Of a DNA stretch of 64,000 nucleotides, positions 14,948-43,374 are shown piece after piece. Each line of letters opens with the position of its first letter. Position 1 is the first letter of the stretch. The stretch lies in the NCBI GenBank assembly GCA_965204745.1, contig OZ242010.1, positions 256,001-320,000 on the forward strand, in the 5' to 3' direction. The stretch is from Candidatus Latescibacterota bacterium (GTDB lineage: Bacteria > Latescibacterota > UBA2968). Made by a program: the position numbers and the translations under genes. The notes under the pieces were generated by a model. It made no database searches. It saw only the letters and a program-made list of their open reading frames with translations, and had not been told where the DNA came from.

Positions 14948-15178
14948 GCATTTCAGCCTCGAGAATGGTAAAAAATAGCGTTTGTAATTTAGGCAAAAAT
15001 CAATGGCAGGGCAACAAAAACGGCATTGCACACGAGACAACCCGCACGCAACGCCGCCTTCACGAGGTATCAAAAAATCATTGACCCAATATGGTCATAT
15101 CCGCATGGTAAGGGACAAGAGGCGCAGTTGTCAGTTGTCAGCCGCTTTTATCTTTCTGATTTATCACTGGAGTTCCAA

Positions 15179-16009
15179 ATGCCAACACCTAATTCCCCCC
15201 AACGCCCTGAAATTTTGCCCAACGTGAAACACATCGTCGCGGTTGCCAGTGGCAAGGGCGGCGTGGGAAAGACGACGGTGAGCGTCAACCTCGCGGTCTC
15301 GCTCGCCAAACAAGGCGCGGCCGTGGGCCTGCTCGACGCGGATATCTACGGCCCCAACGTGCCCTTGATGATGGGCGCGATGGCGCAGCCCAAATCGCGG
15401 GGACAAAAAATTCTGCCCATTGAAAACCACCAGGTCAAATTCATGTCCCTCGGCCTGATTGCGGGCGAAAATGCCCCTATTATATGGCGCGGGCCTATCG
15501 TGGGCAGAATGATTCAGCAATTCATGATCGACGTGGTATGGGCCGCGCTCGACTATCTCATCGTGGATTTGCCCCCCGGCACGGGCGACGCGCCCCTCAC
15601 CCTCGTCCAAACCGTGCCCGTTGGCGGCGCGGTCATTGTCACCACGCCACAGAGTGTCGCGTTGGAAGATGTCTATCGCAGCATCGCGATGTTTCGCAAA
15701 GTGGAGGTGCCCGTTCTCGGCGTCGTGGAAAACATGAGTTATTTCCAATGCCCGTGTTGCGGGGACCTTGCGCCCCTGTTCGGCGAAGGCGGGGGGCAAC
15801 ACATCGCCGAGGCGTTTGGCCTGCCCCTGCTCGGTCAAATTCCCATTCAGCCCGATATTTGCGAACGCGGCGACGCGGGCCTGCCCATCGCCCTCGATGA
15901 CAACCCCAACGCGCACCCCATCAGCACCAGCTTTGCCGAGATCGCCACGCGCGTTGCCGAGGCATTGGGAGAACGCAAAAGCAATTTGCCGGAAATTACG
16001 ATTGTTTGA
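15179..16009 (+). CDS. mrp: Mrp/NBP35 (ApbC) Fe-S cluster carrier ATPase
   Basis: ASGKGGVGKT, DADIYGP, WRGP, DLPPGTGD, ENMS..CPCC. Confidence 0.93.
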   Translation: MPTPNSPQRPEILPNVKHIVAVASGKGGVGKTTVSVNLAVSLAKQGAAVGLLDADIYGPNVPLMMGAMAQPKSRGQKILPIENHQVKFMSLGLIAGENAPIIWRGPIVGRMIQQFMIDVVWAALDYLIVDLPPGTGDAPLTLVQTVPVGGAVIVTTPQSVALEDVYRSIAMFRKVEVPVLGVVENMSYFQCPCCGDLAPLFGEGGGQHIAEAFGLPLLGQIPIQPDICERGDAGLPIALDDNPNAHPISTSFAEIATRVAEALGERKSNLPEITIV

Positions 16010-16403
16010 AGAGCGCGGTCTGTGACCTGTGACCCCGCCCAACTCCCTTCGGTAAGACGTAAGACGGGAGAGGGGAGGCAACCCCGCCACAGCCTACCCC
16101 TTCGGCAAGAGGGGAGACGTAAGACGTAAGATGTAGGGGCGATGCCCCGTGCTCGCCCGAAGATACAAGAGGGGAGAAGACAACTGCGCTATTCCGATCA
16201 AGGGATCAAGTAGGGTCAGCCTCCATCTCCAAGCCCCGTAGGGATGGCTCTTGTGCCTGTCCTCGTACCCAGCGATGAGGGCGACCACCCAGCGGTCGAT
16301 AGCCAATCTTTGGGGCAGGGCTTGCAGAACGGGCAAAAATGCGTTACATTCAAAGGCAAGCGTCCAATGCCTGTCGTAACTTTAAACCAAAAGGAGAAGC
16401 ACG

Positions 16404-17078
16404 ATGATTGCGAATCTCGCTAGGGAAAAAGACAACTTTCGCATGGCGGTGTTCTGCGAGCCATCCGTGGGTGTGGTGAACGACAAGGGCGAGACGGGCC
16501 TGCACATTACAGCGCGTCTGAACCTGCCCGCACTGACCGAAGACCTGTTGGCGCAGGGGGCCAATGTCAACGTGCAGGCCCAATGGGGCATCACACCGTT
16601 GCACGTTGCGGCGGGGTACAACGCGCTTGAAACGACACAGGTCTTGCTGAACTACGGGGCAGATGTCCGTGCCAACGCGGAATTTCAGGGAACGCCGCTA
16701 CATGTTGCGGGAAAAAAAAATGCTTGTGAGATAGTTGCGTTGTTGTTGAAACGCGGTGTCCCTGTCCATGCGACAGCCAACGATGGCAAGACGCCGCTAC
16801 ACTATGCGGCGTGGCACAACGCGCTTAAGACAGCAAAATTGTTGTTAAATCAAGGTGCCGATGTCAACGTGAAAGACATAGCTGGCATGACGCCCCTGCA
16901 CTATGCGGCGGCGGTCAATGCTCATGAGATGGAAGCGTTATTGCTTCAAAAGGGGGCTGATGTCAACGCGGATGACAAGTTTGGAAATACACCCCTGCAT
17001 TTTGAGAGTCTGTTGGGGTCTGCCACGATCAAAATGACCACAGATGAAATCATGGCATTGACTCGGGGGGAAAAATGA
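16404..17078 (+). CDS. Ankyrin-repeat protein with a VapB/AbrB-antitoxin-like C-terminal tail
   Basis: Five to six G.TPLH repeats; last repeat cut after TPLH and continued by ESLLGSATIKMTTDEIMALTRGEK. Confidence 0.8.
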   Translation: MIANLAREKDNFRMAVFCEPSVGVVNDKGETGLHITARLNLPALTEDLLAQGANVNVQAQWGITPLHVAAGYNALETTQVLLNYGADVRANAEFQGTPLHVAGKKNACEIVALLLKRGVPVHATANDGKTPLHYAAWHNALKTAKLLLNQGADVNVKDIAGMTPLHYAAAVNAHEMEALLLQKGADVNADDKFGNTPLHFESLLGSATIKMTTDEIMALTRGEK

Positions 17079-17488
17079 ATGGTCTGCTGGTCGATTCCAA
17101 TGTCATTTTAGATGTCGCTAAAAACGATCCCGATTGGGCGACTTGGTCTTTACGAATGCTTGAACGATACCACGCGACTCACGAGTTGATCATCAATCCG
17201 ATCATTTATGCAGAAGTGTCAATCGGGTATGAAAATATTGAAGAAGTAGAGCGCGTGCTCAAAGAAGGTGGCTTTCACATGCGCCAAATTCCAAAGGAAG
17301 CCCTTTTTTTCGCTGGCAAGATTTTTTTGGCGTATCGCAAGCGCGGTGGAATAAAATGTTCGCCATTACCCGATTTCTTTATCGGCGCGCACGCCGCCGT
17401 TGAAAAATTATCTCTGTTGACGCGAGATGCAAGCTACAAAACAAATTTCCCGACAGTGAATCTCATTTCACCTAAAGAGTCATGCTGA
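17075..17488 (+). CDS. vapC: PIN-domain toxin (VapC family)
   Basis: LVDSNVILD, IYAEVS, PLPDFFIGAHA, LLTRD; ATGA overlap with upstream gene. Confidence 0.9.
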   Translation: MNGLLVDSNVILDVAKNDPDWATWSLRMLERYHATHELIINPIIYAEVSIGYENIEEVERVLKEGGFHMRQIPKEALFFAGKIFLAYRKRGGIKCSPLPDFFIGAHAAVEKLSLLTRDASYKTNFPTVNLISPKESC

Positions 17489-17549
17489 AGTCATTTGCTT
17501 TGGAGGCATAGAAATGGCAGACTTAATAACTGTGTCGGTTGATATGTTT

Positions 17550-17628
17550 AGCATCATCAAAAGGGCGGCCGAACAATCTCCGTACGGGGTTTAGAAGCCC
17601 CGACCTTTCAAGGCGGGGAGTGTATCAC
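17550..17628 (+). mobile_element. IS200/IS605-family right-end remnant
   Basis: GAAGCCCCGACCTTTCAAGGCGGGGAGTGTATCAC: subterminal hairpin ending in TCAC; no tnpA/tnpB present. Confidence 0.55.
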
Positions 17629-17773
17629 AGCCGAAATACGGCGCGTTATTGATTATCCGCATATAGTTGATTCATTAAAAAATGTCGAAATTTGAAAAGG
17701 CTTCGCGGCAGTTGATAGACACATTCAAAACAGGCAAGGTCACCGGTTATCAGTGTCAAAGGGCGAGATACAA

Positions 17774-18100
17774 ATGAGCGAAATCACATTGCATATTCCG
17801 GACGCGCTGACGGGGTTGCCCAAACGGGAACAGGCCATTCTCATGGGCCGTGCGCTGAGAAGTGCTGTTGAGGAGCGCGTGATTCAGGTCGAGGAGGAAA
17901 TCAGGGAGGGGCAGGCTTATTTGGAACAGTACAAAAAGAAGTACGGCCTTTCGTTTGTAGCTTACGAAAAAAAAATCAATGACTTGGAATTTGTAGGAGT
18001 CGATTATCAAGAGGATTACAACGACTGGTATTTCTGGACTGAGTGCGTGCAACGCGCCCAAGGTGTTTTAATAAATTTACGCCAATTTTTGTCGCCGTAA
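17774..18100 (+). CDS. Hypothetical protein, antitoxin-like
   Basis: 108 aa ORF, YKKKYGLSF...EDYNDW pattern seen in small TA-associated proteins. Confidence 0.55.
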   Translation: MSEITLHIPDALTGLPKREQAILMGRALRSAVEERVIQVEEEIREGQAYLEQYKKKYGLSFVAYEKKINDLEFVGVDYQEDYNDWYFWTECVQRAQGVLINLRQFLSP

Positions 18101-18186
18101 TGAATCTCAATATCCCAAATCAATATCGAGGAGAGGATGGGGCGGAAGATGGGGCATCGTGAACCAGCAACTCGAGGAGACACGCC

Positions 18187-19359
18187 ATGAGCGCGACTTA
18201 TGACATGCTCGTCGCACGGGCAACGGCTATTACTACCGGGCTTTCTCCGGAACGCGCACAGGAGAAACTCCACGCCAATGGCACGTTGCTCATTGACGTG
18301 CGCGAGCGCGAACACTACATCGAAGGGTATATCCCCGGCGCGGAAAACGTGCCGCGTGGGTTTCTCGAACTTCGCATCGAAGGCATGGACAACGACCGTG
18401 ACCGCACGATTGTCGTCTATGGCGACAAGGGCCAAGGCGCGTTGGCCGCACAGGCATTGCAAGGCATGGGCTATGCCAATGTCGCGTACATCCAAGGCGA
18501 CATCGAGGCGTGGCAAAACGCCGGTTTGCACCTCCACCGCGACCGCGCGCTCAACAAGGCCGAAGTGCAACGGTTCTCCCGCCATCTGCTCATTCCCGAA
18601 GTGGGGGAACGCGGGCAGGGCAAATTGCTCGACGCGCGCGTGTTGCTCATCGGCGCGGGCGGATTGGGCAGCCCGACGGGCCTGTATCTGGCCGCGACGG
18701 GCATTGGGACGCTCGGCATTGTCGATGCCGACGTGGTCGACGTTACCAACTTGCAACGCCAGATCTTGCACGGCACGTCTGACCTGGGCCGCCTCAAAGC
18801 CATCTCGGCGTACGAGACCCTCAAAGAGATCAACCCCGGTTGCCAAGTGGTGCCGCACACGGACTACCTCACGTCCGACAACGTCATGGACATTCTTCCG
18901 GAATACGACATTATCGTCAATGGATGCGACAACTTCCCAACGCGGTATCTGGTCAACGACGCGTGCGTGTTCCTGAAAAAGCCCATCGTGGATGGCAGCA
19001 TTTTCCGATTCGAGGGCCAAGTCACGGTCTATACGTGCGACAGCGAGGGGCCGTGCTACCGATGCCTGTACCCCGCGCCGCCGCCGGCAGATTTGGCGCC
19101 GTCGTGAGACGAAGCAGGCGTGTTGGGCGTTTTGCCCGGCACGGTTGGCCTCGTGCAGGCCACTGAAGTCGTCAAACTCATTCTCGGTCAGGGCAACCCG
19201 CTCATCGGTCGCTTGCTGATGTACGATGCCCTGCAAATGAACTTCAACACGTTCAAAATCCGCCGCGACCCGACCTGCCCAGTCTGCGGAGACAATCCCA
19301 CGATCACGGAATTGATAGATTATCAAGCCTTCTGCTCGATGGATCACGGTGAGAAATGA
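18187..19359 (+). CDS. moeB: Rhodanese-MoeB/ThiF adenylyltransferase, probable selenoprotein (Sec at TGA 19105-19107, residue 307)
   Basis: GAGGLG, NLQRQ, CYRCL..APS-TGA-DEAGVLG..CPVC; ORFs 18187 and 19120 are in the same frame; TGA replaces the conserved Cys. Confidence 0.85.
19120..19142 (+). promoter_or_regulatory. Candidate bacterial SECIS element
   Basis: GTGTTGGGC-GTTTT-GCCCGGCAC 9-bp stem; apical loop starts with G, 21 nt after UGA. Confidence 0.65.
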
Positions 19360-19662
19360 AAAAAGTAGTCAGTTGTCAGTTGTCAATGCGAATTGAGAGT
19401 AGAAAGCGAGTAAGAAGCAAGCCGCAACCCATCATCCAAAGACATGAACGAGGTTCTGTTGACATTTTGTTTTTGAGCGATGAGCGTGACCTCAAAATAG
19501 AGAAAGCCTCGATTCTCACCTCGCCACCCTGCCGCCCGTGCGTTCCTCGCCGCTCTACCCAACCGCCCGTGCGGCCTCACCGCGCCACCCAACCGTGTCT
19601 GAATCGCGGATTAAACGGATTAGAGGATTGCGCGGATTACCCCACACCGCCCTACCGCCATA

Positions 19663-19871
19663 GCCCTATCCCCCCGGCCCCCGTTATTCGCTTCGCTCAT
19701 TGTAGGCTACGCCTGTGCCTACAAGGAAAGGGGGAGCACATGGCTTTCTTAAAGGTTTGCATCCAGGGCTGTTTTTGATGGCTTTGCGCGAATGGATCAC
19801 GCCATGAAAATCCAAAAAACCTATCGCACAATCCCTCGCAAAACCGCTCACAGTTCCCCCTTCCTCGCAGG
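19663..19871 (+). repeat. ~200-bp palindromic MITE-like repeat, copy A (3' truncated)
   Basis: Similar to copies at 24716, 34049, 34255 and 39007. Confidence 0.85.
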
Positions 19872-20196
19872 GACAGGACCCTGTGCCTGTCCTTCTCGCT
19901 TGACTGACCACCGATCCCATCGTCATTTTACCACTTGACAAATAATAGCGTAATTTTTAATTTCTTATCCATTCGCTATTTCGATTTTGAGCGCGGAGAA
20001 AAAGCCGCGTCTAATTTGTGCGACAACTTTTGCAAAGGAGGCTCCAGATGATTACCACCATTTTCAGCCGCTGTTTGAACCTCATTTGGCACTATGTTCA
20101 CTCCGCGAAAAGTGGCGTTCATATCGCCCATTCTCGTCTTGGCGTGTGGTTCTATTTCATTGCAAATCAGTCTGTTAGGATGATCAGTACAGTGTA

Positions 20197-24943: not shown

Positions 24944-25165
24944 TATGGCGGTAGGGCGGTGGGTGGTAATCCGTGCAATCCGCGTAATCCGTTTAATCCG
25001 AGATTCAGACACGGTGGGGTGGGGAGGAAGGGCACGCATGGGTGGCAGGGAGGACGAAGCGGCGGTTGGGCGTTGGGTTGCCCTCTCGCCTCTTACCTCT
25101 CCCGTCTTACCTCTCCCGTCTTACCTCTCACCGAAGGGAGTTGGGCGGGGTGGCCGCGCCGCCCA

Positions 25166-28769: not shown

Positions 28770-29077
28770 GTAAGACGTAAGACGTAAGACGTAAGACGTA
28801 AGACGTAAGACGTAAGACGTAAGACGTAAGACGTAAGACGTAAGACGTAAGACGTAAGACGTAAGACGTAAGACGTAAGACGTAAGACGTAAGACGGGAG
28901 ACGTAAGACGGGAGACGTAAGACGTAAGACGTAAGACGGGAGACGTAAGACGGGAGACGTAAGACGTAAGACGGGAGACGTAAGACGGGAGACGTAAGAC
29001 GTAAGACGTAAGACGTAAGACGGGAGACGTAAGACGGGAGACGTAAGACGTAAGACGGGAGACGTAAGACGGGAGAC
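28770..29077. repeat. Heptamer tandem repeat, 44 units of GTAAGAC/GGGAGAC
   Basis: 18 pure GTAAGAC units, then a 26-unit mix. Confidence 0.97.
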
Positions 29078-40544: not shown

Positions 40545-40859
40545 TCAAGTCTGCAATAAATCCAAGCCCGCAGTGGTTGAAGGGTGGGGCAGGGACTGAC
40601 CACTGACTACTGACCACTTGAGCGGGATAGCGCGGCTACCTTCTCTCCTCTTGTATCTTTGCACGGGGGCATCGCCCCTACACACTGCTCGCCTTTGAAC
40701 GGGCTATCGCTAGTTGAGTTGTACCCTTTTTGTGCCTTTTGTGCCTTTGAACTGGCTGTCGCCAGTTGTACCCCGCTCGTGGCTAAACTTCCATCTTACC
40801 TCTCCCGTCTTACCTCTCACCGAAGGGGGTTGGGCGGGGCGGAAACTGACCACTGCCTT

Positions 40860-42264: not shown

Positions 42265-43374
42265 ATGCCGCGACTCACGGGTAAGGTCAGCGACTTTTTG
42301 AAGATCGGCGTTGCTGCTGCGGGGCGCGGCGATTTGGAGACCGTGCGACAGGTGCTGGCGGAAAGGCCGGATTGGTTGGGGCGCGTCGGGTCGCACGGGC
42401 GCACGATGCTGTGGGAAGCCGCGTATCGCGGGCGGTTGGCGATAGTCGAAATGTTGCTCGACCGCGGTGCAGACATCCACGCCTGGGGCTGTCATTTCAC
42501 GCCGCTGTTGGTGGATATTTCGCCCTATTGCGCGGCGCGGCTCAAGAAACACGACGCGGTTGCCGATGCGTTGCTGGCGCGTGGGGCGACTGTGGATATC
42601 TACACGTTTGCCTATCTCGGCGATGGCGATGCGGTTGCCGAGTGCTTGCGCCGAGATCCGAATCTCGCCACGGCAGAGCGACCGCAACGCGATTCCGATA
42701 TGCGCGCCACGCCATTGCACTACGCGGTCAGCGCGGGGCACTTGGACATCGTCGCATCGCTGCTCGACCACGGCGCAGACCCGCGGCCCTATCCCTGCGA
42801 TCTGGTGCGGTTCTGCATCTGGCGGGATCGGCCGGACATCCTGAAGGTTCTGCTCGACGCCGGGCTCGACCCGGCAATCGCGGAACTGCCTCGATCCGGT
42901 CTCACCAATCCCGCCATCATCGCCTTGCTCGCACGCCGCGGCGTGACCTGCGATCCAAATCGCGCCGAGGGCGGTTGGCCGCCCATCGTCTTCCAATCTC
43001 GCGGCGACCGCGGCGGCAGTATTGACCGCATCCGCGACCTGATCGCACGCGGCGCGGACGTGAACGCGCGCAACTACAAGGGCCAAACCGCGTTGCACTG
43101 CGCGGCCAAGGCGGGCTTTGCACCTATTGTTTCGCTGCTTCTCAAACGCGGTGCCGAAGTCGATTTGAAAGACAACGAGGGCCAAACCCCACTTATGACC
43201 GCTTTGCGCTCGACCATCAAAAACGAGGACAGGCTCCGCGAAGTCATTCGCCTTCTCACAGCCGCGGGCGCGAATCCCGACAGCACAGACCGCCGCGGGC
43301 ACACGCCGCGCCTCATCGCCACGCGCAAACGCGATGCAGACGCTTGGCTCATCGCCCTGGGCAAAAAAAATTGA
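42265..43374 (+). CDS. Ankyrin-repeat protein
   Basis: TPLHYA, TALHCAA, TPLMTA repeats; AGGAG RBS. Confidence 0.9.
   Translation: MPRLTGKVSDFLKIGVAAAGRGDLETVRQVLAERPDWLGRVGSHGRTMLWEAAYRGRLAIVEMLLDRGADIHAWGCHFTPLLVDISPYCAARLKKHDAVADALLARGATVDIYTFAYLGDGDAVAECLRRDPNLATAERPQRDSDMRATPLHYAVSAGHLDIVASLLDHGADPRPYPCDLVRFCIWRDRPDILKVLLDAGLDPAIAELPRSGLTNPAIIALLARRGVTCDPNRAEGGWPPIVFQSRGDRGGSIDRIRDLIARGADVNARNYKGQTALHCAAKAGFAPIVSLLLKRGAEVDLKDNEGQTPLMTALRSTIKNEDRLREVIRLLTAAGANPDSTDRRGHTPRLIATRKRDADAWLIALGKKN

Follow-up and report, generated by a model that had tools for sequence, protein, structure and literature searches.

A 64,000-nucleotide stretch of a Candidatus Latescibacterota genome (contig OZ242010.1, positions 256,001 to 320,000; hereafter the window, in whose numbering positions are given) carries an open reading frame (ORF) of 224 residues in which ankyrin repeats run in frame into a short tail of the VapB antitoxin type, immediately ahead of a vapC toxin gene. 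Type II antitoxins are textbook two-part proteins, with a DNA-binding head and a toxin-binding tail. As judged from the sequence, the ORF is a real and naturally occurring chimeric antitoxin gene, and its product probably still neutralises VapC despite having no DNA-binding domain. The tail itself is identified by alignment as the C-terminal part of an AbrB-type VapB and, by analogy with characterised antitoxins, would be the part that wraps the toxin. The two coupled genes are built as follows.

16404..17078, + strand: chimeric ORF of 224 residues, ankyrin repeats followed by VapB tail (ORF list, sequence, Pfam)
16404..17000, + strand: ankyrin-derived part, codons 1-199, with five full repeats and the start of a sixth, ending TPLH
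17001..17004, + strand: recombination junction TTTG, common to both parents
17001..17078, + strand: vapB-derived tail, codons 200-224 (FESLLGSATIKMTTDEIMALTRGEK), and stop codon
17075..17488, + strand: vapC, PIN-domain toxin gene of 137 residues (PF01850)

The chimeric ORF and its VapB-type tail

The 224-residue ORF is coupled to the 137-residue ORF by a stop/start overlap, ATGA, at 17075-17078. Its ankyrin repeats end in ...GNTPLH (H199), leaving the sixth (capping) repeat truncated, and the frame continues as FESLLGSATIKMTTDEIMALTRGEK; the first-pass annotation had placed both ORFs, the overlap and the end of the last repeat exactly. The TPLH and helix-turn-helix signature of tandem 33-residue ankyrin repeats is present, with a 99-nt periodicity in the DNA (repeat family D1), and Pfam assigned Ank_2 (8.4e-43) and, in five stretches, Ank (1.3e-35). 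Ankyrin families were the only ones to reach the cut-off in Pfam and NCBIfam, none of the AbrB, RHH or HTH families doing so, and the swapped-hairpin N-terminal domain of AbrB/MazE (PF04014) was not found by Pfam, which bears out the earlier proposal of an ankyrin scaffold in place of the DNA-binding domain. NCBIfam matches to Legionella Ank effectors and to MzaA lay far under the cut-offs and were driven by the repeats (the vapC ORF gave a sub-threshold VapC match). PADLOC returned only ankyrin-repeat matches at the locus (PDC-M72A, Ankyrin), and Rfam had no match in 15900-18300. A single-sequence AlphaFold2 (AF2) model of the fusion was uninformative (mean pLDDT 49.5), and the ankyrin assignment rests on the sequence.

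A whole-protein homology search with the 224-residue ORF returned generic ankyrin proteins, the best of them 41-49% identical and none with the tail. The exact fusion was also absent from a collection of 15 billion proteins, an absence that could stem from another choice of start codon or from annotation as a pseudogene. A promoter and terminator scan gave one promoter-like site, on the minus strand, and no terminators, fewer than in shuffled sequences, and is uninformative on expression. Separate production of the tail as a peptide starting at M212 is unlikely, as it would comprise 13 residues only and would lack a ribosome-binding context.

The source of the tail is indicated by a 71-residue VapB from a sister genome (P0136). 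Its residues 47-71 align to residues 200-224 of the ORF with 22 of 25 identical (BLASTP, E 4e-13 for the pair), and its residues 2-44 form an AbrB/MazE domain (PF04014, 2.7e-14). In a DNA search of 40 relatives, the tail and vapC (window 17005-17472) found separate matches in G008, G006, G004, G014, G009 and G013 at 81-84%. All five sister vapBC loci that were opened (L005-L009) have the 71-residue AbrB-type VapB ahead of vapC, with the same ATGA overlap; this VapB reads MRVTSKGQVTIPKKVRE...ENPYK[RS]LLGSATIKMTTDEIMALTRGEK. Relative to the vapB of G008, the tail has eight synonymous and three non-synonymous differences, the latter all in its first three codons, and the core of the tail shows zero amino-acid changes against the sister VapBs despite 8-9 synonymous differences.

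Relatives of the window VapC (52-79% identity) were then considered at 160 loci, 80 on genome contigs and 80 on metagenome contigs, these being the best 80 of 582 confirmed per scan. Each locus was classified by the ORF ending at the vapC start, using the tail pattern ..LRG.AT.KM[ST]TDEIMALTRG.., the AbrB signature KGQVTIP and the ankyrin signature TPL[HYC].

151 of 160 loci: upstream ORF with tail motif and AbrB signature KGQVTIP
4 of 160 loci: tail present, upstream ORF interrupted by the contig end
2 of 160 loci: no upstream room
2 of 160 loci: tail with another N-terminus (L143, 36 residues; L146, non-AbrB head)
1 of 160 loci: pattern missed, tail seen by eye (L089)
0 of 160 loci: upstream ORF with ankyrin signature TPL[HYC]

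The tail motif was present by pattern in 155 of the 160 partner ORFs, with one more (L089) recognised by eye, and many of the relatives have the same overlap with vapC (stop end minus start = 3). Because this classification shows the extent of the conserved C-terminal motif of the cognate antitoxins, the window tail can be seen to span it entirely, only the AbrB head and linker having been lost (alignment A3). The likeness to an AbrB-type VapB C-terminus remarked on in the first-pass annotation is thus confirmed, both by the identity to P0136 and by the family motif. A PDB sequence search with VapB gave only weak AbrB matches (E 0.12 or more).

In the solved Shigella complex (PMC3384007), the AbrB domain of VapB occupies residues 1-45, and an extended tail, residues 46-67, wraps VapC; the break between ankyrin repeats and tail in the window sits at the place equivalent to this boundary. 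Likewise, the C-terminal motif of C. crescentus VapB is described in PMC5389673 as needed to bind and inactivate VapC.

Two of the metagenome contigs carry other versions of the antitoxin. At L146:2057-2491, the protein ahead of a VapC relative has the VapB tail described here (..KMTTDEILALTRG) but a non-AbrB N-terminus (MKTTISIPDEIFQEIERFSKKHRYSRSQVF...), for which (MKTTISIPDEIFQEIERF...) Pfam gave only weak matches, E above 0.03; in this natural variant the head has been exchanged and the tail retained. At L143, a 36-residue upstream ORF holds the tail without an AbrB head, adjoining an apparently whole vapC, and may be another truncated vapB.

The VapC toxin and the fusion junction

The 137-residue ORF matches the PIN family (PF01850, 2.9e-10; 41.3 bits against a cut-off of 23.6). 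An alignment of 49 sequences has 26 invariant columns, every one of them conserved in this ORF, including D7, D13, W21, W24, S25, E47, S49, E56, the LPDFFIGAHA block, T116 and R117. The acidic residues D7, E47 and D100 are kept, as is the near-invariant D118. With the family match above cut-off and no invariant column lost, the earlier description of an intact vapC behind the ATGA overlap holds. An AF2 model built on the 49-sequence alignment has the PIN fold (pLDDT 92.5). Its best Foldseek matches were the VapC chains of solved VapBC complexes (3zvk, 6a7v, 3tnd and 4chg; TM 0.71-0.77), to which the window VapC is 16-20% identical (16-22% over solved chains), and a PDB sequence search with the window VapC found no relative.

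The genome contains about six ankyrin genes and 10 PF01850 loci, among which the window VapC is the sole member of its VapC family. A genome-wide search with the sister VapB matched residues 47-71 only in the 224-residue ORF (E 2e-7) and gave two weak AbrB-head matches with other tails (E 0.011 and 0.04). No other cognate VapB was found by this search in the 5.48-Mb, 97.65%-complete genome, and residues 1-46 of the sister VapB have no counterpart anywhere in the locus.

A prediction of the complex, a kind of check suggested earlier, gave a median score of 0.58 (runs 0.66, 0.58 and 0.56) for VapC with ORF residues 193-224, the best of three controls reaching 0.01. The runs agreed in at least 94% of contacts, with a partner pLDDT of at least 71. 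Of 80 solved complexes, 58 attained the mark set for such scores, as did 2 of 110 mismatched pairs; with scores of 0.60 or under, only 7 of the 80 attained it, together with both mismatches that passed. The alignments were user-built, so that these benchmark counts are approximate, and VapBC complexes have already been solved, so that likeness to them may contribute to the score. We grade the prediction as weak support.

One conserved residue is missing from the window VapC: the arginine at alignment column 123, conserved in at least 90% of the 49 relatives (RDxxRY), is deleted (RDAS-YK). Among the 15 members listed for its 90%-identity cluster, four have an Arg-less C-terminal end (P0121, which is the window VapC, P0124, P0127 and P0135), eight read DATRYKTD and three DTRKPRYKTY. 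P0126 is the same as the window VapC up to residue 119, the last 20 residues differing by T>S, loss of R, D>N and P>S, which looks like the outcome of recombination or of fast local change. At window 17429-17440 (vapC codons 119-122), the allele types across P0121-P0135 are DAS-YKTN..KESC, DATRYKTD..KEPC and DTRKPRYKTY.

The junction was followed in Logan contigs of four runs (X1, X2, X6 and X11) on window 16300-17800; the runs containing the stretch are mostly labelled sponge metagenome. The TTTG at 17001-17004 is a 4-nt microhomology common to both parents, because loose ends in X6 continue each of them intact: before 17001, the vapB frame reads ...KGAKHKKENP, as in an intact vapB, and behind 17004 the reading is AKANNARETA, as in an intact sixth ankyrin repeat (compare VAKENNAHETA in G016). 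DNA alignment A1 agrees. A microhomology of 4 nt is typical of illegitimate recombination.

Junction-spanning words occur in X1 record 4, which covers 16971-17529 with zero differences, in X2 record 14, from a second study (16424-17025), and in X6 record 25, from a third (16971-17059). The short side of the junction measures 30 (X1), 25 (X2) and 30 (X6) letters, under the 31-letter bridging rule, so that these contigs are a hint and not proof. X2 and X6 diverge from the window at ~1% of positions, and both fusion contigs have CTT (Leu) at codon 202 where the window has AGT (Ser). The earlier annotation had asked whether sister strains keep separate ank and vapB genes, with the fusion unique to this assembly; the genes are indeed separate in the sister species, but the junction is found in runs of three studies.

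A different allele is seen in X11, from a fourth study (record 9, three differences in 483 nt), where 17004 is joined to 17629 through 279 other letters that replace 17005-17628, the 624 nt with vapB'-vapC. A depth-4 contig of X1 (main path depth 66-88) has the same joint. Strains with this locus but without the fusion must exist, since both contigs carry the 279-letter allele. In G016, the distance from the equivalent of 17004 to the third base of codon 43 of a PIN_3 toxin gene (corresponding to window 17629) is exactly 279 nt, and from this gene-length arithmetic we infer that the 279 letters are codons 201-251 of the ankyrin gene and codons 1-43 of PIN_3.

These data also bear on the possibility that an assembler joined an ankyrin gene and a vapB'-vapC pair at a short repeat that they share. 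In the assembly graphs a branch point coincides exactly with the junction, and intact vapB and intact ankyrin continuations are present in the same runs. However, the junction-spanning words recur in the zero-mismatch X1 record and in the X2 and X6 records, the 5.48-Mb genome forms one contig, the reading frame runs through the join and the 279/624-nt replacement stops on its right side at a defined point, 17628/17629. Such an artefact is hardly credible.

The ankyrin family, the locus and the origin of the fusion

The ankyrin part belongs to a small subfamily with four copies in 21 genomes of the genus (E 1e-85 or better; other ankyrin matches are at most 57% identical). At the DNA level, window 16389-16997 is 85% identical to the ankyrin gene of G016 (L003), 82% to the genome's own paralog (L012) and 81% to the gene of G018 (L004), the ankyrin part having dN/dS values of 0.28-0.34 against these three. 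A further ankyrin-repeat gene at window 42313-43290 (open frame of 488 residues) lies outside this subfamily.

In G018, the ankyrin ortholog (L004 1516..2289) ends in ...RKRTIEIERAIDEAIRAVRKEQKS, and its stop codon forms an ATGA overlap with the start codon of an intact PIN_3 gene of 144 residues (L004 2286..2720; PF13470, 7.3e-23). The closest relatives of this PIN_3, in G010 and G011 (62-64% identity; L178, L179), lie behind an ordinary 80-residue protein ending in ...REDIREAVAQFRASFKDIPSEEIEQIIGESRRAVRARGS, a small antitoxin in which, for G010, Pfam gave no significant domain. Residues 208-251 of the 251-residue ankyrin protein of G016 align to residues 37-80 of the G010 small antitoxin (26/44 identical, E 8e-15), and the DNA of the ankyrin gene and of the small antitoxin can be aligned through the ATGA overlap into the start of PIN_3. 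The PIN_3 of G016 is broken (L003:2267-2830), with codons 1-24 at the ATGA overlap and codons 24-40 ~440 nt downstream, and the genome's own ankyrin paralog is syntenic with this locus and without a toxin. G018 and the own paralog share deletions of 1 nt and 83 nt, which together remove 84 nt and, after eight codons read in another frame, restore the frame into the tail. Part of the DNA that splits the G016 PIN_3 matches sequence downstream of PIN_3 in G018.

On these alignments, the ankyrin family was an antitoxin-tail fusion coupled to PIN_3 already before the window event, and that event is therefore best regarded as a swap of tail and toxin, not as a first fusion. With PIN_3 intact in G018, broken in G016 and left as a remnant at 17624-17692 in the window, the ankyrin scaffold has carried two tail-plus-toxin cassettes. 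The ankyrin part probably also has a function of its own, since the own paralog has retained the ankyrin-tail gene although no toxin adjoins it.

Could the repeats then act as a sensor, binding a phage or host (sponge) protein so that the tail is freed or exposed and VapC released, as abortive infection or as a response to stress? Ankyrin repeats typically serve in protein binding. One ankyrin scaffold occurs in combination with two tails that are unrelated and with two kinds of PIN toxin, its frame into the tail has been kept three times (at the first fusion, at the 1+83-nt deletions and at the swap), and the dN/dS values above indicate purifying selection on the ankyrin part. We nevertheless hold a sensor antitoxin to be quite improbable. 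Nothing seen here points to a ligand, only two of the four subfamily copies in the 21 genomes have an intact toxin, and the persistence of the toxin-less paralog argues for a separate role of the repeats. Furthermore, an ankyrin fusion was not found outside the genus, either in homology searches or at the 160 vapC loci, and PADLOC yields ankyrin-repeat matches only. A broader version, in which ankyrin-domain antitoxins are a selected architecture of sponge-associated bacteria, with an exchangeable tail and PIN cassette and with toxin release or co-delivery dependent on a phage or host protein being bound, and not on DNA binding and proteolysis, would make the window a PIN_3-to-VapC swap on a working sensor; we regard it as improbable.

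The chimeric gene and vapC lie in a segment that has no counterpart at the same position in G016 and G018, and this segment includes remnants of other toxin-antitoxin (TA) genes.

16354..17764, + strand: segment extra relative to the syntenic mrp - ORF115 - moeB interval of G016 and G018 (blastn)
17486..17543, + strand: 5'-end remnant of another TA operon, intergenic DNA and the first 10 antitoxin codons, inside a short ORF at 17514-17594
17624..17692, + strand: PIN_3 toxin gene remnant, about residues 42-60 and then a stop (tblastn, BLASTP, translation)

A blastn search with window 15000-20000 matched up to 16353 in G016 (L010) and up to 16035 in G018 (L011), both resuming at 17765, and the subject gaps opposite the extra segment are 39 nt (L010) and 162 nt (L011). 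In both genomes the flanking genes (mrp-like, a conserved 115-residue ORF and moeB-like) are adjacent, and 16354-17764 is lacking. The first remnant is 90% identical to G016:C1:3860600-3860657, a stretch lying in an antitoxin gene (L196 1890..2171, minus strand) upstream of a PIN_3-like gene; both begin MADLITVSVD. The second matches the PIN_3 of G018 (10/19 identical, E 0.002, tblastn) and of G010 (E 1e-4, BLASTP), and its position fits the 279-letter arithmetic.

A locus of this kind, a patchwork of TA fragments, is also compatible with neutral decay, and this is one of several points that weigh against a working antitoxin. The fusion would then be an accidental scar in a decaying TA graveyard, with VapC attenuated or unexpressed, the tail irrelevant and the ankyrin copy damaged at its C-terminus. 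The loss of the conserved arginine means that VapC could be attenuated, in which case the tail would be unnecessary; the last 20 residues are also the only ones in which P0126 differs from the window VapC. G016 has a broken PIN_3 partner and the genome's own ankyrin paralog has none beside it, and the capping repeat is truncated. The predicted complex of VapC and tail lends only weak support, the contigs crossing the junction have the short sides given above and X1 may be the source sample. Moreover, the dN/dS values of the tail (0.04-0.08 against three sister vapB genes) and of vapC (0.21-0.27 against sister genes) are summed over the whole divergence from the sister genes, so that the selection they record may all predate the fusion.

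Decay alone, however, fits poorly with a VapC that keeps 26 of 26 invariant columns and its acidic residues, with a tail core unchanged in amino acids among so many synonymous differences, and with an in-frame join at which the ATGA coupling was kept. The allele also occurs in runs of three studies, which diverge from one another by ~1%, and the genome has no other cognate antitoxin. We therefore consider a neutral scar unlikely, and favour a chimeric antitoxin that would still neutralise VapC.

The following origin is proposed for it. The ancestral state would be the small, genus-restricted ankyrin family ending in a small-antitoxin tail and translationally coupled to PIN_3. Illegitimate recombination at the 4-nt microhomology would have replaced ankyrin codons 201-251 and, by extension, the first ~43 codons of PIN_3. 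The donor was presumably a TA-rich locus, from which came the last 24-25 vapB codons (47/48-71), the whole of vapC and the 5' end of the TA operon that follows. The incoming vapC would thereby have lost its own antitoxin promoter and DNA-binding domain, and, with an active vapC arriving, survival would have been open only to recombinants in which the VapB tail followed an expressed gene in frame. Such survivorship, of cells still making the VapB tail, may be the cause of the in-frame join. The ankyrin domain would serve as a folded carrier of the tail, and the 25-residue tail, as the sole neutralising element, would wrap VapC and block its active site in the manner of AbrB-type VapB tails. Translation of vapC would proceed by coupling to the chimeric ORF, and, with operator-binding autoregulation lost, the pair would be driven by the promoter of the ankyrin gene.

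Of the two explanations offered with the first-pass annotation, a ligand-triggered sensor and a chance deletion fusion kept because it neutralises VapC, the second comes closer. A fusion by recombination fits best, given the microhomology and the normal vapB of the sisters; VapC is presumed to be neutralised in the cell. A two-step history, with in-situ deletion between an adjacent ank and a full vapBC, is possible, its intermediate having been seen in no genome or contig examined. Homology between the two tails was rejected as the cause of the swap, as the junction lies upstream of both tails, at the 4-nt match.

Several features of the surrounding DNA may be recorded. Upstream of the ankyrin ORF, window 16032-16179 is a dispersed repeat with copies 75-97% identical in this genome, G016, G018, G030 and G037, the last two being genomes of a neighbouring family. 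A tandem repeat with a 7-nt unit (AGACGTA / AGACGGG) fills ~300 nt at window 28773-29076 and has short copies in other intergenic spots (16055-16131, 25084-25128 and 40801-40817); its 17-mer has 39 matches against 0.07 expected. Downstream, window 17753-18100 holds the conserved 115-residue ORF, which lies beside moeB in G016 and G018 and also occurs in G008 and G012 (76-87% DNA identity across the four), and which has no Pfam, NCBIfam or PADLOC match.

Comparison with known systems

The source organism is a probable sponge symbiont, and sponge-associated Latescibacterota have been reported (PMC12993501) to carry ankyrin and other eukaryote-like proteins as well as type II TA systems. In the titles and abstracts of the papers listed for ankyrin with antitoxins, VapC or sponge symbionts, an ankyrin-headed antitoxin was not found. 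A search for longer proteins with VapB returned 38 proteins of 126 residues or more, none with an ankyrin Pfam domain; the same search with the G010 small antitoxin returned two, both DUF2283, and an exhaustive search of representatives with it returned seven, none an ankyrin fusion, although such searches can miss fusions and their negative outcome is weak evidence. The first-pass annotation had proposed to look for ankyrin repeats plus this tail upstream of PIN genes. No ankyrin partner was present at any of the 160 vapC loci; what the sister genomes hold is ankyrin repeats with a different tail before PIN_3.

The locus shows a tail of ~25 residues placed after a repeat domain of 199 residues to which it is unrelated, and still beside an intact toxin, in natural populations. 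Within a single ankyrin family, tails from two unrelated antitoxins have been combined with two different PIN toxins, and nature thereby offers a test of how little of a VapB suffices for neutralisation. The locus also suggests a way for TA genes to spread and for new couplings to form, in which fragments invade expressed genes by "addiction-filtered" in-frame recombination, and such invasion could link toxins with the eukaryote-like proteins of symbionts. Control of the toxin by a ligand of the ankyrin part, if it exists, would represent a novel form of antitoxin regulation. For that case, fused sensor toxin-antitoxins of the CapRel type, in which an antitoxin domain binds a phage trigger and releases the toxin, offer an analogy only.

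Among characterised systems, the AbrB/SpoVT-type VapBC modules (Shigella flexneri, 3tnd; Rickettsia felis VapBC2, 3zvk) are close in design. They share with the window a PIN toxin (TM 0.71-0.77), an antitoxin gene directly upstream with an ATGA overlap and, as described in PMC3384007, a toxin-wrapping C-terminal antitoxin tail, the part that is kept here. They differ in that the window has ankyrin repeats in place of the AbrB domain for DNA binding and dimerisation, and because that domain is replaced, neither operator binding nor the usual hetero-octamer could form as in the solved structures.

The sister VapB-VapC pair (L005-L009, P0136) is nearer in sequence, with a VapC 77-79% identical, a tail matching at 22/25 positions and the same overlap and ribosome-binding context, whereas the window lacks VapB residues 1-46, lies at another locus, inside an ankyrin gene, and encodes a VapC minus one conserved arginine. 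The ankyrin-tail and PIN_3 module of G018 (tail A; small-antitoxin counterpart in G010 and G011, L178 and L179) resembles the window in its ankyrin subfamily (amino-acid identity 79-85% where the N-terminal parts align), its short antitoxin-derived C-terminal tail, its ATGA overlap and its PIN-type toxin. Its tail, however, derives from the 80-residue antitoxin of G010 and its toxin is a PIN_3 (PF13470), as opposed to the PF01850 VapC of the window.

That antitoxin N-termini are shuffled on a constant toxin-binding tail is a general notion. L146 is like the window in having the same VapB tail behind a non-AbrB head, upstream of a related VapC, but its head still resembles a small DNA-binding antitoxin fold, although its Pfam matches were weak (E above 0.03). 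In the window, a repeat scaffold of 199 residues takes the place of the head, and DNA binding is not known for it. Taken together, the window pair appears to be mostly a VapBC module, departing from it in one defining feature, the DNA-binding head of the antitoxin.

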